Assembly: GCF_000527095.1 (NCBI RefSeq)
Contig: NZ_AZUN01000001.1
Location: 2,876,569-2,908,568, forward strand
DNA from: Methylomicrobium lacus LW14
Lineage (GTDB): Bacteria > Pseudomonadota > Gammaproteobacteria > Methylococcales > Methylomonadaceae
Length of the DNA: 32,000 nucleotides
Direction: 5' to 3'
In this document: positions 10,270 through 24,781 of the stretch, one piece after another
Layout: every line of letters begins with the position of its first letter
How positions within the stretch are numbered: position 1 is the first letter of the stretch
The notes under the pieces: model-generated
The model's input: the letters and a program-made list of their open reading frames with translations, nothing else
Database searches by the model: none
Told to the model about the DNA's origin: nothing
Made by a program: the position numbers and the translations under genes

Positions 10270-12210
10270 TCACTTGTTGTCGAACTGCAAGCCTTCCATC
10301 CGCATCAGCTTGATCATCATCGACAGCTCTTCGCGCCGCCTTCTGAGCTGTTTCAATTGCTCTTCAAGCGCGGTAATGCTTTCGGCGACGTTGCCTTTCG
10401 AGTCATTGATCTTTCTGAGCATCAACAGGCGTCCGTCGATCTGCTTTTTGTAATCCTTGATCTGATGCATCAGCGGCGTCATCACGTTACCGCTCCAGGT
10501 CGCCGCATCGTCGTGCGCCTGCTTAAGGATGTGCCGCGCCTTCGCGATTAACGTGCCATAGAGCTTGTTGATCACGATGCTTTGCTCGGTCATCGTTGTC
10601 TTGGCGCTGGCGCGGAAAGCCTCGCCCTCGGCAAAAACCTGCTCCAGCTCGAACTGATAGGTCGAGATCGAAAACAGCTGCGGCTCAATCTCGACAAAAC
10701 CGTATTCATCCTTGAATTTTTTGTGGATCGCCTTGACCAGGCGGCGGGTTTCATTGGTCAGGTCGACCGACTCCTGTAGCAAATCGCGCAATTCATCGAA
10801 CAACTTACGTATGTTTTGTTTCATGCTGTAAGTCGTCAGGCTCTTGGCCATGTCATCGCGGGTTCTGTTCACGATCTCGTCGATTCTTTCCTTAGCGAAC
10901 GAGTCGACCAGCATTTTTGCCTGCGTCAAAAACACCTGGCGGCTGGTCTGGAAATTCTCGACCGTCGCCATGTACTGGTTCTGCTTGTCACGCATTTCGG
11001 CCAGCAATTTGCCGGTCATGTCCTTGTTCTCGAAGTCGATTTTTTTGACTTCCTCGAGTTGGGAAATCGAATTGCTGTAAGACGAATCGGTCAGGCTCAA
11101 CGACTCATTGACCATGAAGCCGATGTCGCGAATGATCGCATTCATCAGGATCGTCCGGCGTTCCTTTAAAATATCGTTGGCCAGATAATTTTCGAGCGTC
11201 GCCAGCCGGCTTCTCTCGAGCAAATCCGTATCGTTTTTGACCTTGGCCAGCAAGGCCTGCTTGGCCGACACCGGGAAAATGGCCTTTTGATTGATTTTCA
11301 GGGTTTCGGCCGAAGCCTTGATCTGCGATTGAATCGCGCTTTCATAACCTTTTTCACCGGCCAGATCATCCCACATCGCGTCGATCTTGTTCATCACGAC
11401 CGCGACGCTTTGCTTGCTGCCGCTGCTGGCCTTGAATACATGGCTGCGCCACATTTCCAGATCGCTCTTGGTCACGCCGGTATCGGCGGCCAGCAAAAAC
11501 ACGATCGCCTGCGCGCTCGGCAACATGCTCAAGGTCAATTCCGGCTCGGTGCCGAGCGCGTTCAGGCCCGGCGTGTCAAGGATGGCCAGCCCTTCCTTCA
11601 ATAAAGCATGCGGAAAGCTGATCAGCGCATGCCGCCAGCACGGTATTTCCACTTTATCGGGATTCGCGTTGCCCTGCTCGGCGGCCTCGCGCTTGTTCCA
11701 TAAGCCCAGTTTTTCGGCAAGCTCGCGCTCGACCGGCTTTGTCGCCATCAGTTCCATGAAAGCTTCCTGCATTTGCGCAGGCGAATTGCAATCCAACGGA
11801 ATATGTTTCCAGCGCTTGGGCTGCTGTTTCAGTTCGACCAGGGAAATATCTTCCAGACGCGTTTCGATTGCTAACAAGCGGATATAGCTGCCGCCCGCCT
11901 CATCCCAAAACAATTCGGTCGGCGACATCGTGGTGCGGCCCGGCGACGAAGGCAATAGTCTCAGGCCGGTTTCGGCAAAGAATAGCGCATTAATCAGTTC
12001 GGTCTTGCCGCGCGAAAATTCAGCCGCAAACGCCAGCGTGATCCGATCGGACTTCAACCCGCTCAGGATGTTCAAAATCGTATTGTCGCTTTGCGTATCC
12101 TGCAAGCCATAGCGATGACGCCATTGCTGATACATGTCGATCGTTTGTATCAATTTTGCACGCCACTGCGAATATTCGCGCATTTGCTCTTTAAATTCCA
12201 GATTCCTCAT
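10270..12210 (-). CDS. Bacterial dynamin-like protein (dynamin-family GTPase)
   Basis: GTPase motifs are present: G1 EFSRGKTELINAL, G3 ILDTPGLNA and G4 VVMNKID, followed by a long coiled-coil-like stalk. I prefer ATG 12210 (MRNLEF...) to the TTG at 12231. Confidence 0.8.
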   Translation of the reverse strand: MRNLEFKEQMREYSQWRAKLIQTIDMYQQWRHRYGLQDTQSDNTILNILSGLKSDRITLAFAAEFSRGKTELINALFFAETGLRLLPSSPGRTTMSPTELFWDEAGGSYIRLLAIETRLEDISLVELKQQPKRWKHIPLDCNSPAQMQEAFMELMATKPVERELAEKLGLWNKREAAEQGNANPDKVEIPCWRHALISFPHALLKEGLAILDTPGLNALGTEPELTLSMLPSAQAIVFLLAADTGVTKSDLEMWRSHVFKASSGSKQSVAVVMNKIDAMWDDLAGEKGYESAIQSQIKASAETLKINQKAIFPVSAKQALLAKVKNDTDLLERSRLATLENYLANDILKERRTILMNAIIRDIGFMVNESLSLTDSSYSNSISQLEEVKKIDFENKDMTGKLLAEMRDKQNQYMATVENFQTSRQVFLTQAKMLVDSFAKERIDEIVNRTRDDMAKSLTTYSMKQNIRKLFDELRDLLQESVDLTNETRRLVKAIHKKFKDEYGFVEIEPQLFSISTYQFELEQVFAEGEAFRASAKTTMTEQSIVINKLYGTLIAKARHILKQAHDDAATWSGNVMTPLMHQIKDYKKQIDGRLLMLRKINDSKGNVAESITALEEQLKQLRRRREELSMMIKLMRMEGLQFDNK

Positions 12211-12414
12211 GGCAAGCCTTTTGTTTCTCAATATGCGTCTGTTAAGAGTCGAATGTCTGGATCAACAAGATGTTGAAATTCAAACTGTTAAGAAAACAAC
12301 TCGCGCAAACGGAAGCGCAAGCGCTTCCTCGGGAGAGTTTGCTTTAAAGTGTAGACCATATTTGATTTTGGCATAGTTGAATGCCCGGTTTTTTGCCATG
12401 CTCCGCAATTTTCG

Positions 12415-14323: not shown

Positions 14324-16049
14324 TTATTCTGCCCGTCTGCTCACTTCATCCAGCAACTTGATGAAATTGCGCTTGGGTTTGAAGCGGCTGCGCAATTCCG
14401 CCAGATAATCCATAAACTCGCGCTTTCGTTCGGGGCCGTTCAGAATGCTTTCGATCCTCCGCACGAGTTCGACGGCCTCGGCATAGGCGGCATTGTTGGT
14501 TTGTTCTACGATGGTCGGAATGATCTGCCGATACAGAGCCAGGGCATCGTCAGGACGCTCCTTTTCCAGTTTGCCGGCCAGTTCGATCAGCAAATTCCGA
14601 TCGCGGACGCCCGCATGCGCCGCCGTCCAGGCATCATCCAGGTTGTTTTCCCACAACGCGATTTGCAGCCGCACGGAATAATCGGGCATGCCGGGCTTCG
14701 TTTTCCAATAGCTTACGGCGGCGGCTCCTCCGGCAATGGCGTCGGCCAGTTTCGCCAGCGCGCGCTCCCGCTGTTCGGGCCAAACGCCGAGCCGTTCGGA
14801 GACCGCGTGCAGCTTTTTATAATGGTCCAGGATTGGCCGCTCTTCGAACTGCACCCAGGTCAACTGCAAGGCTTCTTCGTTGCGTTGGCTTTTGAGATAA
14901 GCCGCGACCAGAAAATCGCGCAATCGATTGTCGGTGGCGGCAGGGAAAGCGTGCAGACCGCGTTCCGCCCATTCGAGCGCCTTGTCATCCCGGCCGTTCG
15001 CGGCCCATATCCCGGCGATGGTCAGATAACGGTAAGCCGTACTCAGATCGCGCGCCTTGATCGCCACCAGTTCTTCCACGTTGCCGCTCGCTTCGGCCAG
15101 GAACTCCATGATGCGGGTAATACGGTAGCGCTGGAAATCATAAGGGCTGTCGCCGTCACGAAAACCGATCTTGGCCCATTCCGCCTCGGCCAACTCCCGG
15201 TAACGGCGGAGGCCCGCCTCGCCCAGAAGGTCGCGGTAGGCCATCGCATTGATATCGCCGTAATCATTGGCAGGCGAGATTTCCATCCGGAACAGCCGCT
15301 CCGCCAGCGCTTGCGGGTCCGGCTTCGCCAGCCGGCAGGCTTGCAGGTGCAAATCGCCCAACCGGCTCAGGATGCCGCCGACCTCGCCGTTGGAATCGTC
15401 TATGTTGTCGAGCGCTTTTGCTACGCGTCCGATCGCATATTCGGTCAACTCCATCAGCATAGGTGCATCCTCCGGCGTCGATAAGGTCGCTATCGCATCC
15501 ACAACCTGATCGAGCTCATCCGCAAAAGCCCCCGCATCACCCCAGTCCATAAAACCGCGAACCTGGGTCGCCTTCTCGATGGCCTCGCGATAGGCCTTGA
15601 CGGCATGAGCGCCGCCGGCAACGGACTCGGCCTTGAGCAATAGCGTCCGGTATAGGCGATCATCCTGTTCCGCCGCATCCATCAACCACGCGATCAATGT
15701 GTCCGGCGACTGGATCTCCAGATAGTCCCGAATCGTGCGCCACGGATCGGGACGCTGGCCGCTGCCGTCTTCGTGTTCGGCAAGCCAGGCCAGACCGACC
15801 GCCACGCAGTGTTTGCAGAAAAAACCGTCCGCCGCGTTCGGACAACTGCAATCGTGTCCAAGATAGTCCCCGGTCGTCCCGCAGTTCGACATGGTAGGTT
15901 TCGGTGCCATCGACGCGCGCGCTGACTTTACGGCCCGTCTCGCGCAGCGGCCCTACTTGGCCGTCCTCATAATACGCCTCGCCGCGCGCGAAAACCGCTG
16001 GGCCGGCCAGGTTTTTGAGGGCGTTGCGGGTAATAAGCTTTTCAAACAT
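14324..16049 (-). pseudogene. SWIM zinc-finger family protein, split by a +1 frameshift at a G4 run (C4 on plus strand, 15868-15871)
   Basis: The N-terminal frame (ATG 16049) gives MFEKLITRNALKNLAGPAVFARGEAYYEDGQVGPLRETGRKVSARVDGTETYHVELRDDR. The next frame continues DYLGHDCSCPNAADGFFCKHCVAV (SWIM CxC...CxH) and then about 500 aa of helical repeats. Skipping one G restores a single ORF of about 575 aa. Confidence 0.7.
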
Positions 16050-16245: not shown

Positions 16246-17934
16246 TCATTTGCAAATATACGGCACTACAAAACGAATGTCCTTGCCATTCTGCCGAATC
16301 AAATTCCTAAGACCCAAAGACTTGAATTTTGGGTCTTTATGCAACCCTTTTTTATAATTCTCTTCGATGCTCACCGCGTCTTTATCGTAAATGGTAAAGT
16401 CACCATCGGCCAACTTTTTCATCCGCTTGACAAAACCACGAGTCAACTCAAAACATTCAATTTTATCTTTTACAAAGCCTAAAGCTGTAGTAAAGCCTTG
16501 TCTGCTAACCAAAATAGACACCATGCTTTCTTTATTTTCCAGTTCATTCTCCGCAACCCTAAACGAAAATAATTCATCGGCAAAGAAAACCGTTTCAGGT
16601 CTGATTGACAACCGAAATAAGCGATCCCGGCGATTTTCCATCACCAAATCTCTGCCGTTTAGAAAAGCCGCCAGTTCCATCAATTCCGCCCGAATGGGCG
16701 AATGTTCGTCCACTTCCAGCCAGCCATGAGGATGAAAACCGATATTTTTTTCGAGCGATGCGAATTCGAATTCAAAACCACGCAAATGTGCCGCCAGGCC
16801 AAGAATCAACGCTAATTGACGGGGAGTTAATGCTAAATCCAGCGGTTTTTCCTTACCCAGCACACCCGCCATGACGGGTTTTTCTGGATTTCTTGGCAGG
16901 GTAATGCCGTATTTTTCCTTATCCGACAAATAGCTCGGAACAAAGCTGTCCGGCAGGGCCGATAACTCGGCGGCCAGCGCCGCATGATTGCCGGCAAATT
17001 CATCATACAACGCCTTGATGTACGGAATTTTGCCGTCGGTGGTTTCCCCCCGTTCGATGTCGGCAAGTGAAAGCCAAGTCAGCCGAGAATCGCTATTCAC
17101 GCGTTGCTGTAAAAACAAATAACCGTCAAGCGTCAGTTCGATATTAAAAATATCCAGATAATACTCGGTCAAGGCATGATTTGGTGCCGCGCCTTGAACT
17201 TGTCGATACGGTTGCAAACGACGCCAGAGCTCGAATTTGTAATGTGTATCAAACACCAAGCCAGCCTCTTCGCGCAATTCCCGCTTCAAGGTTTCCGGCA
17301 AGGCGTTTTTAATGAGGGGCGAATCAGGCGATTGTAGCGCTTTTAGTAATTCGGCCTTGTCGGCCACACCCCACACGTCATGCTGATTGGCGCGTCCGCC
17401 GATCAAACCATAATCACCCGCTGTTCTGTCGAAATTCTTTTTTGTATCTTCGCGTTGGTAGAACAGAATTTTGCCGTCCAGCTTGATGATACTCCAGGCT
17501 ACGTAACAGTACCGAATCGGCTGAGCTTGTTGACTGATTTGATGTTGAAAACGCGCCTGCTCAATCCAGCGCAACACGTCGCGTTGTTGCTCTTTGCGGC
17601 TGTTGTCGATATCCCGAGTATTCCAGAAATGAGGCGTAAAAAAACGTGATTCGCCGTCGCTCATCGCGGTCAAAACCGAAGTTGCCAGCAACTGGGCCGG
17701 AAAAGAGACGAAACTCCATTCGCCTTTCGCAAGATCATCGAGGTTCAAAACCGACAAAGTATCGAGCAGCCTTTCGCACCACATGACCGTATTCTCGGCG
17801 ACAGCCGGCTCGACCGCATGATGCTCGCTGATCGCCCGAATTAAACTGATCCTATCGACGCTGTAAAAATCGCCTTCCTCTTCCGCATAACGCGGCAATT
17901 CCCGAATAAGCGTTTTGATTAGGTTATCGGCCAT
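16246..17934 (-). CDS. Large (562 aa) uncharacterised protein with a central Nudix-like domain
   Basis: Residues about 140-300 have a Nudix-fold-like layout. The signature RELREEAGL (REUxEExGU) is at aa 218-226, and the GG of the box is at aa 179-180. An insertion of about 25 aa interrupts the box. I do not recognise the flanking N- and C-terminal regions. Confidence 0.6.
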   Translation of the reverse strand: MADNLIKTLIRELPRYAEEEGDFYSVDRISLIRAISEHHAVEPAVAENTVMWCERLLDTLSVLNLDDLAKGEWSFVSFPAQLLATSVLTAMSDGESRFFTPHFWNTRDIDNSRKEQQRDVLRWIEQARFQHQISQQAQPIRYCYVAWSIIKLDGKILFYQREDTKKNFDRTAGDYGLIGGRANQHDVWGVADKAELLKALQSPDSPLIKNALPETLKRELREEAGLVFDTHYKFELWRRLQPYRQVQGAAPNHALTEYYLDIFNIELTLDGYLFLQQRVNSDSRLTWLSLADIERGETTDGKIPYIKALYDEFAGNHAALAAELSALPDSFVPSYLSDKEKYGITLPRNPEKPVMAGVLGKEKPLDLALTPRQLALILGLAAHLRGFEFEFASLEKNIGFHPHGWLEVDEHSPIRAELMELAAFLNGRDLVMENRRDRLFRLSIRPETVFFADELFSFRVAENELENKESMVSILVSRQGFTTALGFVKDKIECFELTRGFVKRMKKLADGDFTIYDKDAVSIEENYKKGLHKDPKFKSLGLRNLIRQNGKDIRFVVPYICK

Positions 17935-17971: not shown

Positions 17972-18006
17972 TTCGATTTTTACCATTGCGACCATTCGAT
18001 TTTTAC
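17972..18006. repeat. Two exact 12-bp direct repeats (TTCGATTTTTAC) with 23-bp period
   Basis: Copies at 17972-17983 and 17995-18006 are read directly from the sequence. They span the vapC stop codon and the gap upstream of the Nudix-like gene. Confidence 0.5.
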
Positions 18007-18404
18007 TCTTCCCAATCTTCAAATGCCAATCCCTTGACCCGCCCGAATTCCCGAGTATTGTGCGTTATCAAAATGACTTCATGAGCCAACGCAATGGCGG
18101 CAATCATGAAATCATTGGCGCCGATGGGCTTTCCGATCGCGCTCAGCTCGCTGCGTATCTTGCCGTAAAATGCTGCCGCCTTATCATCGAAAGGCAAGGA
18201 TTGAAAATGGGCGCAGAAATTTTCGACTTTGGACAAACTGCCTACCGGGTTCTGGCTTTTCATCGCGCCGTAAAGAAGTTCCGCTTTAACCACCGAACAC
18301 AACACGACTTCCTGAGGCTGGCACATTTCCAGTCGCTGTTTTAACCGATCGGAACGCTTGTTCAGAAAAACGATGCAGGCGTTGGTATCCAATAAATATC
18401 TCAT
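18003..18404 (-). CDS. vapC: Type II toxin VapC (PIN-domain ribonuclease)
   Basis: The sequence MRYLLDTNACIVFL... (first PIN acidic residue), ...SVVKAELLYG..., ...GANDFMIAAIALAH...LITHNTREF shows the classic VapC layout in 133 aa. Confidence 0.88.
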   Translation of the reverse strand: MRYLLDTNACIVFLNKRSDRLKQRLEMCQPQEVVLCSVVKAELLYGAMKSQNPVGSLSKVENFCAHFQSLPFDDKAAAFYGKIRSELSAIGKPIGANDFMIAAIALAHEVILITHNTREFGRVKGLAFEDWEE

Positions 18405-18637
18405 GAAATGGGCCCGACTTCATCCAGGTCGGGTTGCTCGGGGCGTTCCAAAGGAGTATCGGCCAAACAGCCATAGCTTTCGTTAATGAACGCCAACCAA
18501 TTCTGCCGCTCGACGGTCTCCTTGCGCGGCTGAATAATCACTACCAACTCCACATCCTGATTGGCGTATTCGGAGGGCAGCGTTAGATGGAGTTGGGCGT
18601 TGTTTTCTATGTGTGTGGTGAATTGTAAAGTTTTCAT
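18401..18637 (-). CDS. VapB-type antitoxin candidate (AF2212/DUF104-like N-terminus)
   Basis: The 78-aa ORF starts at ATG 18637: MKTLQFTTHIENNAQLHLTLPSEYANQDVELVVIIQP...YGCLADTPLERPEQPDLDEV. Its stop overlaps the vapC start (ATGA at 18401-18404), the standard antitoxin-toxin arrangement. Confidence 0.65.
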   Translation of the reverse strand: MKTLQFTTHIENNAQLHLTLPSEYANQDVELVVIIQPRKETVERQNWLAFINESYGCLADTPLERPEQPDLDEVGPIS

Positions 18638-18642
18638 AATTT

Positions 18643-20013
18643 TTACTCTGGTGGAAAACTGCAATAGAAAATGTGCCTTGCCAATTCAAACATATAAGTA
18701 GTATCTTCGTATTTAAAGTCATAAAACTTTATTTCCAGAAGACTTTTTCTATTTCCAGTGCTAATAAAGGGGTTGGATGTACAAAGCCAGAACATTTGAT
18801 AAAGCAACTTAATGAATAATTGCTTATCATTCCGGACTGGCGAATTACTTAGCTGAATATTGTTAGCCAGTTCGTTAAAATAAAAAGCATCTTCAATTTT
18901 TATATCTTTTTTATGGCTTTCGTCTAGTACAATATTTTTTAAAGAAAGATATGTTTCACTAACAGGAATCGTTTTGGATTTAAAATCGTTCTCCGATAAT
19001 GCTTCCTTTTCAAATAGGCTTAGCAATATTTTTTCGTAGCCATGAAGATCCCCATTCCCGTAGTTAAACATAACAAGCATGTTTATCATAAACAAATAAG
19101 CAACCAGCTTTTCATTTATTTCGGAAAATAAGTTTGAATTATGCGTTATCCAATGCCGTGTATTTCGCATTATCCAAGCCAAAACTGCATCATTTTTCTC
19201 TTTATCCCGTTTTATAAACTTTGCAGAATCCCATTCATGAGAAAGGGTTCTGACAAAAAGCTTATACAAGGCGTGTTTGTTTTTAGGTTCTTGCAAAGGT
19301 AAAAACGCTTCTAATATTTCTAAATAACTGATTAAATCCTTAAACTCAGCGGGCTCGTTTTTATTTGTAAAATTTTTGAAATATAATTTACTGCTGTCTA
19401 GCTTCTTCGCATATTGACAACCTTCAATAATTCCGCGGCGCAGTTTAGAGTAAGAGTTGTGACTATTTTCTAAAATCCACTCATGTGCGTAAGAGTCTTC
19501 TGATTTAGGATATATATTGGGTTGTTTTATTTTAGCGCTTTCAAAAGCTTCAAGCGTGGAACTCAATTTATCGCCATTCTGTGAACAAAAAAGTATGTTT
19601 TGTTTTGGAAAGCCAAGTTCAATTACTAATTCCGAATAAATATGAAAGCCGGCATACGGCCTCACTTCCTTACACTTTTCCCCTAATAGCGCTTCATCTT
19701 CCGATTCGTCATTTGGCTTTTTATAGCCATGAAATTTTTCGAGCAACTCAAGGAGACAAGTACTAGGTTCCCCTGTATAAGCAGGCAAATCAATATCTAA
19801 AATGATGTAGTCGATCTTGTTCAAGTCGTTTCTAATGAAACGTAACCCATCATCCAAACTCGTTTCAATAAAAACTCCGAATTTTTCTAAGTTTGCTTTT
19901 AATTGCCGCTTGTTGTCTGAAAAACTCTGTTTATCAATAATGCCGGAAAATAGGTTACTTGCCGTAGTTATTGCAGAATTATCAAAGTCTTCTATCCACA
20001 GAAAATAACTCAT
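18643..20013 (-). CDS. Receiver (CheY-like) domain protein fused to an uncharacterised ~280-aa helical C-terminal domain with an RHxxxH motif; no recognisable DNA-binding domain
   Basis: Receiver landmarks are FLWIEDFD (acidic pair, aa 8-11), DYIILDIDLP (candidate phospho-Asp D73, 19795-19797), ILFCSQ (S144) and K170. The C-terminal part contains WIMRNTRHWITHNS (aa 280-293; DNA 19141-19170). GC is very low: the line at 19081-19140 hand-counts to 25%. Confidence 0.65.
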   Translation of the reverse strand: MSYFLWIEDFDNSAITTASNLFSGIIDKQSFSDNKRQLKANLEKFGVFIETSLDDGLRFIRNDLNKIDYIILDIDLPAYTGEPSTCLLELLEKFHGYKKPNDESEDEALLGEKCKEVRPYAGFHIYSELVIELGFPKQNILFCSQNGDKLSSTLEAFESAKIKQPNIYPKSEDSYAHEWILENSHNSYSKLRRGIIEGCQYAKKLDSSKLYFKNFTNKNEPAEFKDLISYLEILEAFLPLQEPKNKHALYKLFVRTLSHEWDSAKFIKRDKEKNDAVLAWIMRNTRHWITHNSNLFSEINEKLVAYLFMINMLVMFNYGNGDLHGYEKILLSLFEKEALSENDFKSKTIPVSETYLSLKNIVLDESHKKDIKIEDAFYFNELANNIQLSNSPVRNDKQLFIKLLYQMFWLCTSNPFISTGNRKSLLEIKFYDFKYEDTTYMFELARHIFYCSFPPE

Positions 20014-20027
20014 CTTCCACCCTGCCT

Positions 20028-21692
20028 TTACAGAAATTTGTTAAGAATGCCGAATTCGACCACAAAATCATCCTGCAGCGCGGGCTTGGTAAACCGACTC
20101 CCTGTTTTTCGTGCCAAGGCCGATAAAAACGCATGCCCCTTACGGCTACCCTTAATGATGGTGCGTTCGCTTCGCGTTGAAGGATTGCGGCAGCTCAACA
20201 CCCGACAACCCTCGCGCTCCGCCCACTCCAAAACCACCGGCTGCCGGGTTGGAGACGAATAGTATTTAAAGGCATTTACCAGGATTTCATTGAGCAGAAT
20301 CGTTAAAAACGACTCCTTGACCCAGAACTCCTTGAAGCGAATGTCCGCATCGTCAAAGCCCTTTATTTCCAGTTTAAAAAAATGTTGTTCCAGCCACGCC
20401 AGACGTTCCTCCAATCCAGCGGATTGCATCAATAACTGCGCGTAACTTTGCTCCCACTCGGCTTGCAACTGCTGCTCCAGCTCATAAAAGTCATCATACC
20501 AACTTTTGAAGCTCAGTTCCGGCGCACAAAGACCGTGAGCTTTCGCATAGGCCAGATAATGTTGCTGGATTTTCTCGGTGGCCGACGCGGAAAGCAGGTG
20601 CAACATGATCATATCCAGGGTTTTACCAAAGACAGACATAAGACTGCCGGTGCCACGATGATCCTGTTTCAGCCTTTCGTTGAGCACGTCCGGGTCGGTG
20701 GAAATGATGCTGAAAACATCCAGCAGACCGCGCATGGTCTGCGCGGCTTCGGTATACAGCTTGACCTGGTTTTCGTGGGTGGTGTTGTAGATGATGGCAT
20801 CCAGAGGGCTGCGGAATTTGTGGGCGAACATCGCCATGGTTTCTTCTAGTTCGCTTTCTTTTGCTTTCAAACTTTGATTTGTTTTATCAAGTTTAAGCTG
20901 TTGGAAAAGTACTTCACGAAAAGGCTCAAATAATATTCTTTCATGCTCAGTCACTTCTTTTAAAAAACCTTCGATGTGTTCCTCGGCCAATAAGTACTCA
21001 CCAGATCGAATAAATACGTTAAGCCGAAGCGATAAAATAAAGTATTTGTCAATCCAAAGAAAAGGATAATCTCCACTAAGACCATTACACAGTATATTAC
21101 CAATACCTTCTAAGTGCCGATATGTCAGTTCAGCATTTATATCATTTTCATCCAAAGCCATTTGGTCAGAAAAAACATCTAAGTACATATTTATTAAAGC
21201 TTCCCCTAAATTTTCTTCAAAGCCGCCATCGTTACCAAGCTCGTCTAAAAATGGACCTTCAGCCGCTTTTTTAAAATTAGAAATCGCCAATTCTTTATTG
21301 CTCGCAACGCCTTTCCCTGCTAAATACAATAAGCCGAGAAAAAATCGAGCCATTGCGGAATGGGGGCCTGTTTCATACCCCTTGCAGAACGTTAAGACAA
21401 AGCTCCAGCATTGTTGAATATTATTCTTCTCCCATAAGTCATATGGAACAACGATTTGAATGCCCGCATTCACAAGCCAATTCAAAGCATCTTGATTCCC
21501 CTTTTTGGCGGCTTCGACCATGTCTTCCATGCCATTCTCATAGCCTGGATATTCACGAATTAACTTTTCAATAGCCAGATTATATTGAAGCCCCCCATTA
21601 TTTAAAGACATTTCAAACTCATCAAGATCGAACCCGAAAACATCATTACTTAACGCTTTGTCTTTATTGCTTTTGTCTTGTGAGTTTTCCAT
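20028..21692 (-). CDS. Cytoplasmic sensor histidine kinase with Sel1/TPR-like N-terminal region
   Basis: The H-box is MAMFAHKFRSPLDAI (His291, DNA 20820-20822) and the N-box is LLNEILVNAFKY. A Sel1-like repeat, ARFFLGLLYLAGKGVASNKELAISNFKKAAEG, is at aa 115-146. I see no hydrophobic transmembrane segment. There is no clear DxGxG G1 box, and the position reads LSCRNPS. Confidence 0.75.
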   Translation of the reverse strand: MENSQDKSNKDKALSNDVFGFDLDEFEMSLNNGGLQYNLAIEKLIREYPGYENGMEDMVEAAKKGNQDALNWLVNAGIQIVVPYDLWEKNNIQQCWSFVLTFCKGYETGPHSAMARFFLGLLYLAGKGVASNKELAISNFKKAAEGPFLDELGNDGGFEENLGEALINMYLDVFSDQMALDENDINAELTYRHLEGIGNILCNGLSGDYPFLWIDKYFILSLRLNVFIRSGEYLLAEEHIEGFLKEVTEHERILFEPFREVLFQQLKLDKTNQSLKAKESELEETMAMFAHKFRSPLDAIIYNTTHENQVKLYTEAAQTMRGLLDVFSIISTDPDVLNERLKQDHRGTGSLMSVFGKTLDMIMLHLLSASATEKIQQHYLAYAKAHGLCAPELSFKSWYDDFYELEQQLQAEWEQSYAQLLMQSAGLEERLAWLEQHFFKLEIKGFDDADIRFKEFWVKESFLTILLNEILVNAFKYYSSPTRQPVVLEWAEREGCRVLSCRNPSTRSERTIIKGSRKGHAFLSALARKTGSRFTKPALQDDFVVEFGILNKFL

Positions 21693-21737: not shown

Positions 21738-22175
21738 TCAACCGCGTTGATTGTTCAAATTTTCGACATTAATTGGTATCTGCAATTCTTTCCCAACATC
21801 CTGCAACATTTTAATTGCTGTCGGTCTATTGAAATGCGTGGTGATATACCAGCCTTGATAGAGTTTTTGAGTTTGATAGCCGTTAGCCGGTGTTCTGGCT
21901 AACAACGGTATGCCGGAAAGCCTTTTATTCAGTCGCGCGACTTTATCCAAGCCGAGCGTTGCCAGAGTTTGCACAAAGGTATCCGAGATCGTGGCCTGTT
22001 CGATAACTTTTTCGCCAATCCTTACCCTTAGCGTACCACTCGACTTGCGGGGAATCCGGCGTGAACGAATCCGGACAGGTTTCGCAACCGCTTTGCTTGG
22101 TTGCCTTTCCTCGAATCGTTTTAAACAAGCTCTCAATTCCATGTCCAGCATCTGTAATCGTTTGCAGTCATCCAT
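21738..22175 (-). CDS. Hypothetical 145-aa basic protein; first long ORF of the island operon
   Basis: This is an ORF-track entry with no family I can name (…RIRSRRIPRKSSGTLRVRIGEKVIEQATISDTFVQTL…GWYITTHFNRPTAIKMLQDVG). It is on the same strand as the kinase gene and 45 nt upstream of it. Confidence 0.45.
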   Translation of the reverse strand: MDDCKRLQMLDMELRACLKRFEERQPSKAVAKPVRIRSRRIPRKSSGTLRVRIGEKVIEQATISDTFVQTLATLGLDKVARLNKRLSGIPLLARTPANGYQTQKLYQGWYITTHFNRPTAIKMLQDVGKELQIPINVENLNNQRG

Positions 22176-22183
22176 TTTCGCTG

Positions 22184-22309
22184 CTACCGAAGCGAAATCC
22201 CTAAAAGGCTCGCCTCGGCACTTTCGATTTTGAGATCATCGGCAGCGTAGGTAATAGCGGCAAACAGTTCGTTGAATTTGCTGGTGACGGTTTCGGGCAA
22301 TCTGTTCAT
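22184..22309 (-). CDS. Possible 41-aa leader ORF (MNRLPETVTSKFNELFAAITYAADDLKIESAEASLLGISLR)
   Basis: I found this by hand translation, as it is below the ORF-track size cutoff. A GGAGAA sits 7 nt before ATG 22309, and the stop is 8 nt before the next ATG. No homology is recognised. Confidence 0.25.
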   Translation of the reverse strand: MNRLPETVTSKFNELFAAITYAADDLKIESAEASLLGISLR

Positions 22310-22576: not shown

Positions 22577-22604
22577 TTGACATCCACCTCTTACCCTCTA
22601 TAAT
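22577..22604 (+). promoter_or_regulatory. Consensus sigma70 promoter: TTGACA (22577-22582) - 16 nt - TATAAT (22599-22604)
   Basis: Both hexamers match the consensus perfectly. The promoter sits immediately upstream of the riboswitch. Confidence 0.6.
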
Positions 22605-22611
22605 CACCGCC

Positions 22612-22800
22612 TGCTTAAAGGTTCCATTGATGCAATTTCGTCAATGATTAAACGGGAAGCCGGTGAGGAAACTCCAAGGCCGGCGCTGCCCCCGCAACGG
22701 TAAATAAGTTAAGCATCATCAACAGCCACTGTGCGCGAGCATGGGAAGGCGATGATGCAGGGAAACCGCTTATGAGCCCGGAGACCGGCCTGAAAGTATC
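22612..22800 (+). promoter_or_regulatory. Cobalamin (B12) riboswitch aptamer
   Basis: Conserved core strings are present: AACGGGAAGCCGGTGAGGAAACTCC...GCGCTGCCCCCGCAACGGTAA, the B12 box AGCCACTG followed by ATGGGAAGGCG, and the 3' GAGCCCGGAGACCGGCC. It lies upstream of a TonB-dependent receptor, as is typical for btuB. Confidence 0.85.
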
Positions 22801-22915
22801 ACTCGGAACAGCGGAGGGCTGTCCGCGACACGATCACGGCGGTTTTCCCGCCTGCCTGTGCGTTCGTCCTCCGCTGTGTAACTCACCCAAATGCGCGGGC
22901 GGCGCAGAGGACAAC

Positions 22916-24781
22916 ATGCAAAAACTGCTTTTCGGTTCGCTATTGCTGGCGGGCTTCCCTACTCTTGCCCAGGCCGAGGACACCTCTCCCGGCGACTCCA
23001 ACGCTTTACCCGAAATGGTCGTGACCGCAACCCGGTCGGAAGTCGACAAAAATGAGCTCGCCACGGCCAGCACGATCTATACCCGCAAGGATATCGAACG
23101 GCTGCAGGCCAAGACCCTTCCCGAACTGCTGAAAGGCACCACCGGCATAGACCTGACGCAACAAGGCGGCGACGGCAAGACGACCAGCGTGTTCATGCGC
23201 GGCACCAACTCCGATCATGTCTTGGTGTTGATCGACGGCATCAAGGTCGGCTCTGCAACCTTGGGCACGACGGCGTTCGAGTTCATTCCGATCGATCAGA
23301 TCGAACGCGTGGAAATCATCCGCGGCCCGCAATCGAGCCTTTACGGTTCGGAAGCGATCGGCGGCGTGATCCAGATCTTTACCCGCAAAGGCGGCCAGAG
23401 CGAAAAACCCACGGTCACACTGGATGCCGGCGGCGGCAATTACGATACGATGCGAGCAGCGGGCACGGTCAGCGGCAAGTGGCAAAATTCCTGGTATAGC
23501 GTCGGCGCATCGCATTACAACACCCAGGGATTTAATACCCGCGAACCGGTGACCGGCTTTTTCGGCGTCGATCAGCCGGATGACGACGGCTATCACAACA
23601 CCGGCGTGAATGCGCGCCTCGGCCACCGCTTTGCGAATAATGCCGAAATTGACGCCTCCTTTATGCATTCGGAAGGCAGAAGTGATTTTGACGGCACCCA
23701 GCAGGACAAAGCCAAATTCATCAACGAGGTGGCATCACTCTCCGGCAGCCTGAACTTGTTCGACTTCTGGAAATCGACCGTACGTCTCGGCCATAGTTTT
23801 GACGACAATAATAATTTTGCACCCAACGGCGTCTTTGCGTCGCGTTTTTATACGCAGCGCTGGAATGGCACCTGGCTGAATGAATTTAACCTGACCGAAG
23901 ACCATCAACTGCTGCTCGGTTTTGATGGCCGCAATGATGAAGTCGACAGCACGCAAAAGTTTAGCGCCAGCTCCCGCTATGATTTCGGCGTTTTCGGCAA
24001 TTTGCATAGCCGGGTTTTCGAGGATCATTTCATCAATGCCTCGGTGCGCTGGGATAAAAATGAAGCCTTCGGCGACAATGTCACCGGCAACATCGGCTGG
24101 CGATATAACTCGCCGATCGGCATCAGCCCTTTTGCGAGCTTCGGCAAAGCCTTCAAGGCGCCGACTTTCAACGATCTTTATTGGCCAAACACGGGCTTTG
24201 CCTTCGGCAATACCAATTTAAAGCCCGAAGAATCGACGACGGCCGAAATCGGCGTCGCCGGCAACCATAAGCTTGTGCAATGGGAAGTCCGCGCGTATCA
24301 CACCAATATTGATGACCTGATCAATTGGGCGCCGGTGAATCCAACGAATCCCTCCTCGCCATGGACACCTCAAAATGTCAGTAAAGCGCAGATTGATGGC
24401 TTGGAGGGAGAAATCGGCACGCAAATTTTAGGCTGGAACGGCAAACTGAACATGACTTTGTTGGATCCGCAAAACCGGGAGACCAATAAACGCTTAAACC
24501 GCCGCTATCAAAAGAGTCTGTCGTTCGACCTGTCCCGCTCATTCGGGCCTGTCGATGTGGGCGGCATGCTTCTGCTGCAAGGCGACCGTTTCGATGATCC
24601 TGGCAATACGGTTCATGTCAATGGCTACGCCACGCTAGACTTACGCGCCGCCTATCATTTCGACAAAAACTGGATGATCAACGCCAAGGTCAATAATCTG
24701 CTGGATAAACAATACCAACTGGTGGATACTTATAATACGGCGGACCGCAACTTCTTCGTTTCTATCCATTATAATAACTGA
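22916..24781 (+). CDS. btuB: TonB-dependent vitamin B12 outer-membrane receptor BtuB
   Basis: I chose start ATG 22916 (MQKLLFGSLLLAGFPTLAQA signal peptide, AGAGGA Shine-Dalgarno). The TonB box is LPEMVVTATR. Plug motifs are present: FMRGTNSDHVLVLIDGIKV and IEIIRGPQSSLYGSEAIGGVI. A barrel of about 22 strands follows. The track's start at 22772 would translate the riboswitch. Confidence 0.88.
   Translation: MQKLLFGSLLLAGFPTLAQAEDTSPGDSNALPEMVVTATRSEVDKNELATASTIYTRKDIERLQAKTLPELLKGTTGIDLTQQGGDGKTTSVFMRGTNSDHVLVLIDGIKVGSATLGTTAFEFIPIDQIERVEIIRGPQSSLYGSEAIGGVIQIFTRKGGQSEKPTVTLDAGGGNYDTMRAAGTVSGKWQNSWYSVGASHYNTQGFNTREPVTGFFGVDQPDDDGYHNTGVNARLGHRFANNAEIDASFMHSEGRSDFDGTQQDKAKFINEVASLSGSLNLFDFWKSTVRLGHSFDDNNNFAPNGVFASRFYTQRWNGTWLNEFNLTEDHQLLLGFDGRNDEVDSTQKFSASSRYDFGVFGNLHSRVFEDHFINASVRWDKNEAFGDNVTGNIGWRYNSPIGISPFASFGKAFKAPTFNDLYWPNTGFAFGNTNLKPEESTTAEIGVAGNHKLVQWEVRAYHTNIDDLINWAPVNPTNPSSPWTPQNVSKAQIDGLEGEIGTQILGWNGKLNMTLLDPQNRETNKRLNRRYQKSLSFDLSRSFGPVDVGGMLLLQGDRFDDPGNTVHVNGYATLDLRAAYHFDKNWMINAKVNNLLDKQYQLVDTYNTADRNFFVSIHYNN

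Follow-up and report, generated by a model that had tools for sequence, protein, structure and literature searches.

Detocs is the precedent for a TPR-bearing kinase that works with a receiver-effector protein as an abortive-infection system (10.1101/2023.01.24.525353). The MacSyFinder rule of its authors requires DtcA, DtcB and DtcC all to be present, and the DtcC effector is PNP in 80% of cases and otherwise the REase PF18742, TOPRIM PF20469 or a transmembrane domain (10.1101/2023.01.24.525353). Here we describe a kinase-effector gene pair of related architecture from Methylomicrobium lacus LW14, found in a window of 32,000 nucleotides (nt) (contig NZ_AZUN01000001.1, positions 2,876,569 to 2,908,568, forward strand; coordinates below are those of the window). 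Open reading frame (ORF) calling placed a kinase-like gene of 554 amino acids (aa) at 20028-21692 and an effector gene of 456 aa at 18643-20013, both on the minus strand and separated by a gap of 14 nt. The guanine-plus-cytosine (GC) content reaches the window minimum here (0.352 at 19-20 kb and 0.390 at 21-22 kb, with flanks of approximately 0.55-0.60). The original prediction, made from the sequence letters, had noted two co-directional genes 14 nt apart in the lowest-GC part of the window, and both the ORF coordinates and the GC profile agree with it.

The pair resembles Detocs in that a cytoplasmic histidine kinase with TPR/Sel1 repeats lies beside a receiver in which a potentially toxic output replaces the DNA-binding domain, and in that the parts are modular and the genes horizontally mobile. 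Compared by architecture, the Sel1 repeats, DHp-CA fold and invariant H291 of the kinase are analogous to DtcA, and the receiver with its non-DNA-binding output to DtcC. Unlike Detocs, no locus of the family carries a standalone buffer receiver (DtcB), and in place of a PNP, REase, TOPRIM or transmembrane effector there is a HEPN-like one. The kinase core lies beyond the reach of HisKA and HATPase hidden Markov models (HMMs) and has N-P-S as its G1 box; extra conserved genes (up187, a PIN toxin-antitoxin slot and a 562-aa Nudix protein) belong to the cassette; and what family members exchange is their sensor module, not their effector. The search for a standalone receiver covered the window and approximately 80 related loci and found none, and the idea that DtcB was hidden among the small genes was rejected because these are PIN, DUF3368, Uma2 and antitoxin genes. 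PADLOC gave no Detocs-type match for the window proteins or for 63 diverse effector family members (24-50% identity to the window protein). Lacking DtcB, a Dtc-type effector and any PADLOC match, the locus is not a member of Detocs; it was foreseen as sharing the logic of Detocs minus the stand-alone receiver and the PNP effector, and this is how it proved.

No description of a kinase with a receiver-HEPN architecture was found in the published literature that was searched. The pair looks like part of a large unannotated family, two-component in type and Detocs-style in logic. Tentatively, and with rather less than even confidence, we propose that this is an unrecognised two-component immune family of approximately 470 clusters, in which an HMM-invisible kinase with plug-in sensors switches a receiver-HEPN RNase.

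Kinase-like protein, receiver and gene pairing

The upstream gene (20028-21692, minus strand, as are all features below unless otherwise stated) encodes a soluble sensor histidine-kinase-like protein, as judged from the ORF, an AlphaFold (AF2) model (predicted local distance difference test (pLDDT) 88.1, 120 sequences) and Foldseek matches to DHp-CA cores and SEL1L. At least 191 homologues were found, and alignments were made over 120 of them with identities down to approximately 33%. H291, in MFAHKFRSPL (codon at 20820-20822), is invariant in this set, and the motif HKFRSPL resembles the canonical H-box HELRTPL. In the N-box NEILVNAFKY, E469, N473, K476 and Y477 are invariant (E469 and N473 at 20274-20288), as are G515 and G519 of a G2-like box. 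Where DxGxG of the G1 box would stand, the family has an invariant N503-P-[ST], which reads N503-P-S in the window protein (20184-20186), and only approximately 11 residues separate G1 from G2, leaving a very short ATP lid. The conserved DHp-CA core spans aa 262-554 (20031-20909) in the alignments and in the fold match.

Nearly all Foldseek matches of the kinase model were DHp-CA cores (HK853, ZraS, SrrB, WalK, DesK, CusS and AdeS; probability 1.00, E 3e-3 to 3e-2). Together with the alignments, they placed the H-box histidine in a DHp hairpin next to a Bergerat-fold CA domain. Profile searches gave a different picture: neither HisKA nor HATPase_c of Pfam or NCBIfam matched the protein, the family consensus or the family profile, no PADLOC model matched the kinase, and a 37-sequence profile of the core retrieved no kinase from all PDB sequences, only chance matches (GLE1). 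NCBIfam gave one match of 0.014 to a kinase model around the H-box. The N-box and a G2-like box are thus kept, G1 is replaced and profile-level membership is lacking; the HMMs miss the protein because its nucleotide pocket is atypical. As modelled, it is a true histidine-kinase DHp-CA fold in which the phospho-accepting histidine is kept. No transmembrane segment was found (maximum Kyte-Doolittle score over 19 residues, 1.30), and by the same scale neither protein of the pair is hydrophobic enough anywhere to span a membrane. A soluble kinase with the H-box AHKFRSPL and the N-box NEILVNAFKY, as first proposed, is what these motifs and the modelled fold support.

The N-terminal region (approximately aa 20-250, 20943-21635) is a Sel1/TPR-like helical-repeat sensor and is the variable module of the family. 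Sel1 repeats in the window protein were sub-threshold (Pfam, E 8e-5) and were strong in homologues (1.2e-44), and the N-terminus of the model matched SEL1L and LceB in Foldseek, so that the repeats read from the sequence in the N-terminal half were recovered. The kinase core is 65-75% identical between homologues whose N-termini differ entirely, these being Sel1 arrays of varied length, TPR arrays, or N6_Mtase plus Methylase_S. In at least 6 of the 120 kinase homologues listed (P0167, P0177, P0218, P0222, P0226 and P0239) the sensor is replaced by an N6-adenine DNA methylase with a type I specificity (TRD) domain, located at aa 58-429 in P0218, which suggests that these variants sense a DNA sequence or modification. 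In one locus (L034, 25-6430) three tandem kinase-family genes precede a single receiver-effector gene; their cores are approximately 33% identical to that of the window kinase and their N-termini have no Pfam match. This could be an arrangement of many sensors feeding one effector.

The downstream protein begins with a receiver (REC) domain (aa 1-185, 19459-20013), supported by conserved residues, the model and Foldseek, with a helical insert of approximately 55 aa after beta3. E8 and D9 of the acidic pocket, the phospho-acceptor D73 (codon at 19795-19797, assigned by conservation), S144 and K170 are conserved in the 63 members, with D9 and K170 invariant. The AlphaFold model (pLDDT 90.3, predicted template modelling score (pTM) 0.90) showed residues 1-185 as a (beta-alpha)5 receiver fold, and Foldseek returned the receivers of PorX (top), Sln1, Spo0A and NtrX with probabilities of 0.9-0.97. 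Pfam Response_reg detected 5 of the 63 members (best 2.3e-5), the window protein had no receiver or defence match in Pfam, NCBIfam or PADLOC, and the effector profile gave two or three marginal receiver matches among PDB sequences and nothing else. Fold, acidic pocket, phospho-accepting aspartate, Ser/Thr and lysine were all found, and the N-terminus of the effector is, in the model, a CheY-like receiver with its phospho-acceptor residues conserved, as the original prediction had it. One effector family member, P0323 (789 aa), matches only from profile position 111 on, at residues 423-778; its N-terminal extension of approximately 420 aa has a weak Sel1 match, and either a kinase/sensor-effector fusion or an error in gene calling could account for it.

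Response regulators with enzymatic outputs, of the PorX, CheB and RpfG type, are well known. The effector is like them in having an N-terminal receiver fused to an output other than DNA binding, and PorX was its top match via the receiver. It differs from them in that its output is not alkaline-phosphatase-like, a methylesterase or HD-GYP, and in that its genes behave as a mobile cassette.

Conserved pairing was surveyed in 80 loci, in 78 of which an effector gene was called. For the effector family, no fewer than 372 close homologues were counted, as well as 466 clusters at 50% identity, and almost every member shares one architecture. In 72 of the 78 loci the gene immediately upstream of the effector gene is a co-directional kinase-family gene; the other six are five contig-edge cuts and one ORF-calling merge. 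Loci that seemed to lack a kinase were rejected as such, because a divergent member of the same cluster was present or the contig edge cut the locus. The spacing from kinase stop to effector start was mostly +9 or -4 nt, and the two genes are usually translationally coupled. Pairwise distances of kinase cores and effectors were correlated (Mantel r = 0.71; none of 2000 permutations reached this value and the maximum permuted value was 0.22), showing that kinase and effector co-evolve as a paired unit. Several metagenome-assembled genomes carry two paralogous loci, and the distribution of the family is patchy (Methylococcales, Chromatiaceae, Beggiatoaceae, Nitrosomonas and Pseudanabaena). No effector homologue was found in phage genomes, a result that counts neither for nor against a role in defence. 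The folds, the pairing and the correlation together uphold the central claim of the original prediction, a soluble repeat-bearing kinase paired with a receiver fused to a non-transcriptional output.

These data also bear on whether the kinase-like protein phosphorylates its partner at all. It could instead be a pseudokinase or phosphatase that restrains the receiver-effector, with activation following loss of the partner or coming from another phosphodonor, much as in toxin-antitoxin logic. The invariant N-P-[ST] in place of DxGxG, the lid of approximately 11 residues, the failure of HATPase_c HMMs to match even the family consensus, the tight translational coupling of the kind seen in toxin-antitoxin pairs and the absence of a buffer receiver would all fit such a role. 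Nevertheless, the histidine, the Mg-binding Asn and Glu of the N-box and the G2-like glycines remain invariant at approximately 33% identity, which is hard to explain without nucleotide binding and phosphotransfer, and the structures matched by the fold are active kinase cores with bound ATP or ADP. We therefore regard a restraining pseudokinase as quite improbable.

Output domain of the effector

The approximately 270 residues that follow the receiver are helical in the model and had no Pfam output domain and no fold match in PDB or BFVD by Foldseek. The original prediction had estimated this part at about 280 aa and had seen in it no winged-helix, LuxR, GGDEF, HD-GYP or CheB-type output; the Pfam and PADLOC searches that it had proposed likewise found no ordinary DNA-binding or signalling output in the C-terminal part. 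Its description as a different effector stood in so far as no recognised output family was found, but the domain carries an invariant HEPN-type Rx4H motif at the canonical position.

The HEPN census gives Rx4-6H, with a polar residue after the arginine, as the signature of these domains; they are four-helix up-down bundles in which the motif closes helix 3, helix 2 holds an acidic residue and a variable insert separates helices 2 and 3, and Abi2 and Swt1 form one clade among them (PMC3710099). HEPN RNases are typically dimeric in action (PMC13092281). Only five effector residues are invariant across the 63 members, namely D9, G122, K170, R286 and H291, the last two forming the motif R286-x4-H291 (19141-19158), which reads R286-[N/H]-W-x-x-H291. 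In the model this motif closes helix 274-291, ahead of a loop to helix 301-315. The preceding helix holds the conserved residues R255, H259 and E260, and a poorly conserved insert (264-273) separates the helix of E260 from that of the motif. Both the Rx4-6H motif and the helix-3-end position that mark the superfamily (PMC3710099) were thus found in the effector.

Permissive scans pointed in the same direction. HEPN_Swt1 gave sub-threshold matches in 4 of the 63 members (best 0.052), Abi_2 of Pfam matched the family consensus at 0.056 with the alignment exactly on the motif, and permissive PADLOC scans of the members gave Csx1/Csm6 (0.035) and Cas13-ApeA (0.05). HEPN families were the only output-type families to recur in these scans, and no profile or structural similarity to HEPN domains reached significance, all matches being sub-threshold. 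From the invariant motif, its position and these weak profile matches, the segment of approximately aa 186-340 (18994-19458) was assigned as a HEPN-like helical domain and predicted RNase, and we consider it fairly probable that the output is a HEPN RNase. It is followed by a confidently modelled C-terminal extension of helices and a beta-hairpin (aa 341-456, 18646-18993), in which Y405, W409 and R446 are conserved.

The closest systems in chemistry are the Abi2/Swt1 HEPN abortive-infection proteins (AbiD/AbiF RNases), RNase activity of the present protein being a prediction from sequence. The effector shares with this clade, as the census portrays it (PMC3710099), the R-(polar)-x3-H pattern at a helix end before a loop, an upstream acidic residue, the variable insert between helices 2 and 3 and the weak HEPN_Swt1 and Abi_2 matches. 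It differs from the clade in having no significant sequence or fold match and in its C-terminal extension of approximately 115 aa. A receiver-HEPN fusion was not among the architectures in the searched parts of the census (PMC3710099). In concept only, the effector is like the KEN domains of RNase L and Ire1, where a signalling module leads to dimerisation and activation of a HEPN-family RNase (PMC3710099); those proteins fuse a Ser/Thr-kinase-like domain within one eukaryotic polypeptide, whereas here there is a two-protein His-Asp relay, and no homology is implied.

The sub-threshold status of the HEPN matches, and the lack of a significant profile or fold match to any nuclease, would equally suit a helical domain that is not a nuclease and that provides a binding output, such as a scaffold or the release of an inhibitor. 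The kinase and receiver would then be only a switch controlling the Nudix or PIN proteins, both of them conserved in the operon and candidates for the true effector role, and inactive HEPN-like domains that only bind RNA do exist according to the census (PMC3710099). Against this, the family keeps only five residues without exception, and R286 and H291 are among them, a pattern more suggestive of catalysis than of binding. On balance we find a purely binding output improbable, and the distribution of the Nudix and PIN genes, given below, argues further against it.

The larger cassette and its genomic context

In Methylococcales the pair belongs to a co-directional array in the order 187-aa gene (up187), kinase, effector, small-gene slot and 562-aa Nudix protein. 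The original prediction had described a two-gene module beside a toxin-antitoxin pair and a Nudix-like giant. Both of these neighbours are present, but they recur within the co-directional cassette and are not mere neighbours, and the two-gene description fails in Methylococcales, where up187, the PIN toxin-antitoxin slot and the Nudix protein are conserved parts of the cassette.

The accessory gene up187 (21738-22309) was recognised from its intact homologues upstream of the kinase elsewhere. In the window, a G-run near 22195 has lost 1 nt (GGG, not GGGG), and the resulting frameshift leaves 41 N-terminal codons at 22309-22187 and a 145-aa remainder at 22175-21738 in another frame; this may reflect a pseudogene, an internal restart or an error of assembly. 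The homologues, which begin with MNRLPETV, are unbroken over approximately 187-190 aa; in 21 of 57 loci one of them immediately precedes the kinase gene, and the locus of the closest relative of the window kinase has an intact 190-aa up187. The protein has no Pfam match and no recognisable domain, and it was rejected as a candidate receiver because it has neither receiver features nor a Pfam match.

The small-gene slot holds a small antitoxin-like ORF (18401-18664) with a weak RelN-antitoxin match, which shares 22 nt with the end of the effector gene, and a VapC PIN-domain toxin (18003-18404; PIN 4e-16), which overlaps the antitoxin gene by 4 nt and matches the NCBIfam tRNA(fMet)-specific VapC equivalog above its cut-off (4e-43). 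The same antitoxin-like gene and VapC fill the slot in 4-5 other loci. Among 38 Nudix-bearing loci its content is PIN-type in 25 (PIN, DUF3368/PIN_4-like, or VapC as in the window), a Uma2 nuclease in six and nothing in three. It differs even between kinases that are 95% identical, with VapBC in the window and a DUF3368 pair in the closest relative. The slot (18003-18664) and its equivalents (L001-L087) are therefore a hot-swap site for PIN toxin-antitoxin pairs or Uma2 nucleases.

The last gene (16246-17934) encodes a 562-aa Nudix hydrolase, identified by the NUDIX profile and invariant box residues, whose N- and C-terminal domains have no assignment. The Nudix domain (PF00293) lies at approximately 17005-17517. 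PF00293 was found in 34 of 35 homologues (best 4e-7), and the window protein scored 19.1 bits against a cut-off of 21.1. G179, G180, R218, E219, E222 and E223 of the box are invariant, R181 is intact and there is a long insert inside the box, so that the family shows both the Nudix box (GX5EX7REUXEEXGU) and the Pfam domain; its profile gave only chance matches among PDB sequences (ERR-gamma). Of 47 loci with at least 5 kb of downstream sequence, 28 have a co-directional Nudix gene downstream of the pair and 19 have none. Starting from the Nudix side, with four homologues on long contigs outside the effector match list together with the closest kinase relative, all five loci reached carried the pair upstream, and the view of the Nudix gene as an unrelated neighbour was rejected on this ground. 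Clades outside Methylococcales (Chromatiaceae, Thiomargarita/Beggiatoa and Pseudanabaena) mostly carry the bare pair, for which reason we treat the pair as the core and the other genes as accessories. The absence of the Nudix gene from those 19 loci, and of PIN genes from many, is difficult to reconcile with an output domain that acts solely through these proteins, and the pair needs an output of its own because Nudix/PIN-free clades carry it alone.

The cassette in this window is a low-GC insertion of approximately 6 kb. On one side are the housekeeping genes for TrmB, a HemW-like radical-SAM protein, a PRTase and a dynamin-like protein, and on the other is btuB under a cobalamin riboswitch. 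A search of the window found no tRNA, an integrase was likewise absent, and a tRNA/integrase boundary for the cassette was therefore dropped. A copy of the cassette lies on a 149-kb Methylomonas plasmid, with up187, kinase and effector annotated as hypothetical proteins. The gene pair is horizontally acquired and lies on a mobile low-GC cassette. At plasmid locus L081 (NZ_CP123898.1, 96765-101315) the Nudix gene is apparently split into NUDIX proteins of 354 aa and 237 aa, separated by sugar-kinase and SPFH-domain genes, and the cassette is flanked on one side by PRTRC-system genes and on the other by phage-type Bet/exonuclease recombination genes.

A defence-island setting had also been predicted. 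A large island in the window was rejected, since the flanks are housekeeping except for one PDC-S62/DUF6880 gene. Elsewhere the cassette adjoins a Tn7-like TniQ and Wadjet with BrxR (L082) or Lamassu LmuB and a group II intron (L084), and matches in the 136 nearest flanking genes include MADS, Mokosh, PD-T4-6 and PDC-S03. The island setting thus holds for some loci but not for most, and defence association of the cassette is present but moderate, because few flanking genes match and the most recurrent neighbours are housekeeping. A conflict system is indicated more strongly by mobility, by a patchy phylogeny, by paralogy, by the swapping of sensors and by the toxin-antitoxin genes within the cassette. 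In two further loci (L005, 4865-7426, and L022, 591-3200; a Nitrosomonas and a Methylococcaceae) an NYN-domain RNase and a ThiF/E1-like protein with a weak JAB match lie directly upstream of the kinase, and these genes resemble the ubiquitin-like conjugation modules of some defence systems.

The recurrent housekeeping neighbours, the merely moderate enrichment of defence genes and the fixed position of the Chromatiaceae loci between phoR and ykuD/glgC would also suit a non-immune two-component pair that tunes RNA turnover to an endogenous or environmental cue, with a phospho-activated RNase and a Nudix RNA 5'-pyrophosphohydrolase. Such a pair would use the same enzymatic logic (kinase fold, receiver and HEPN-like motif), and response regulators with enzymatic outputs such as PorX, the top structural match, are known. 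It accounts poorly for the low-GC insertion, the plasmid copy and the patchy spread across phyla, for several paralogous copies per genome with different sensors, and for sensor swapping that includes methylase/TRD modules of the restriction-modification type. Nor does it account for embedded, rapidly exchanged PIN toxin-antitoxin pairs or for Wadjet and Lamassu as neighbours. Mobility, paralogy, sensor swapping, the toxin-antitoxin slot and Wadjet/Lamassu proximity are hallmarks of conflict systems and not of core regulation, and we consider a non-immune role unlikely. Our preferred explanation, held at about even confidence, is a conflict or anti-phage cassette that moves horizontally and has a phosphorelay-switched RNase at its centre.

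Several observations weigh against this explanation. The defence function is one that we infer from architecture and context. Defence matches amounted to approximately 10 of the 136 nearest neighbours at E <= 1e-10, a figure that has no background control, and the most recurrent neighbours were housekeeping genes (efflux pump, ABC transporter, PhoR, YkuD, GlgC and fumarase). The HEPN assignment rests on the motif, its position and sub-threshold matches, and the Foldseek matches of the effector model in PDB and BFVD included no HEPN structure. A CA domain with a very short lid and no canonical G1 aspartate puts ATP binding and autokinase activity in doubt, and the absence of a DtcB-like buffer leaves the avoidance of autoimmunity unaccounted for. 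Because up187 is frameshifted, the window copy may also be partly decayed.

Proposed mechanism and neighbouring genes

In the mechanism that we propose for a phosphorelay-switched RNase, the sensor repeats would recognise an infection-associated protein, and the methylase/TRD variants would recognise DNA instead. The kinase would autophosphorylate on its H291 and the phosphoryl group would pass to D73 of the effector, after which phosphorylated receivers would dimerise and bring two HEPN-like domains together. The paired R286-x4-H291 motifs would then form a composite, metal-independent RNase site, and cleavage of RNA would lead to translation arrest, as abortive infection or growth arrest. 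More speculatively, the co-transcribed Nudix protein and PIN (VapC-type) toxin-antitoxin pair may be accessory modules directed at RNA or nucleotides, with the Nudix protein acting either as a second effector or as a pyrophosphatase on RNA 5' ends or nucleotides, and the toxin-antitoxin pair as a stabiliser or back-up trigger. The up187 protein may be an accessory regulator that is dispensable or lost in the window strain.

If this proposal is correct, defensive two-component signalling would be a broader principle and no longer the single example of Detocs. It would have a second, independent branch that needs no buffer receiver and whose effector chemistry is RNA cleavage, not ATP depletion as in Detocs. 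The effector would be the first HEPN nuclease gated by a His-Asp phosphorelay, and a simple model for how receiver dimerisation by phosphorylation assembles a composite HEPN active site. In methanotrophs the pair would share one fixed operon with a giant Nudix hydrolase and with a slot for exchangeable PIN toxin-antitoxin pairs, and the combination of a fixed partner and a fast-exchanged slot offers a natural system for studying the recruitment of accessory toxins to immune operons. The methylase/TRD-kinase fusions suggest a route from the sensing of DNA sequence or modification to an RNase output. A kinase lineage with N-P-S as its G1 box is missed by standard domain models, and two-component censuses would undercount accordingly. 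The hosts, which are methanotrophs, nitrifiers and giant sulfur bacteria, are ecologically important, and their phage defences have barely been explored.

Some neighbouring features of the window were also recorded. A bacterial dynamin-like protein of 653 aa (10270-12231; Dynamin_N 4.5e-11) is encoded a few kb from the cassette, amid housekeeping genes and with no visible link to it. A gene for a DUF6880/SWIM zinc-finger protein (14324-15910), which matches the PADLOC candidate PDC-S62 (E 7e-52), adjoins the cassette directly and sits in DNA of normal GC content; it is not counted as part of the cassette because a homologue occurs in none of the 80 related loci. On the other side, a cobalamin riboswitch (RF00174, 22602-22807, plus strand; 108.7 bits in Rfam) lies upstream of a TonB-dependent receptor gene (22772-24781), which is followed by cobalamin biosynthesis-like genes. 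Directly before the riboswitch is a promoter-like site (22577-22604, plus strand) with a perfect 12/12 match to the sigma-70 consensus, TTGACA-16 nt-TATAAT.

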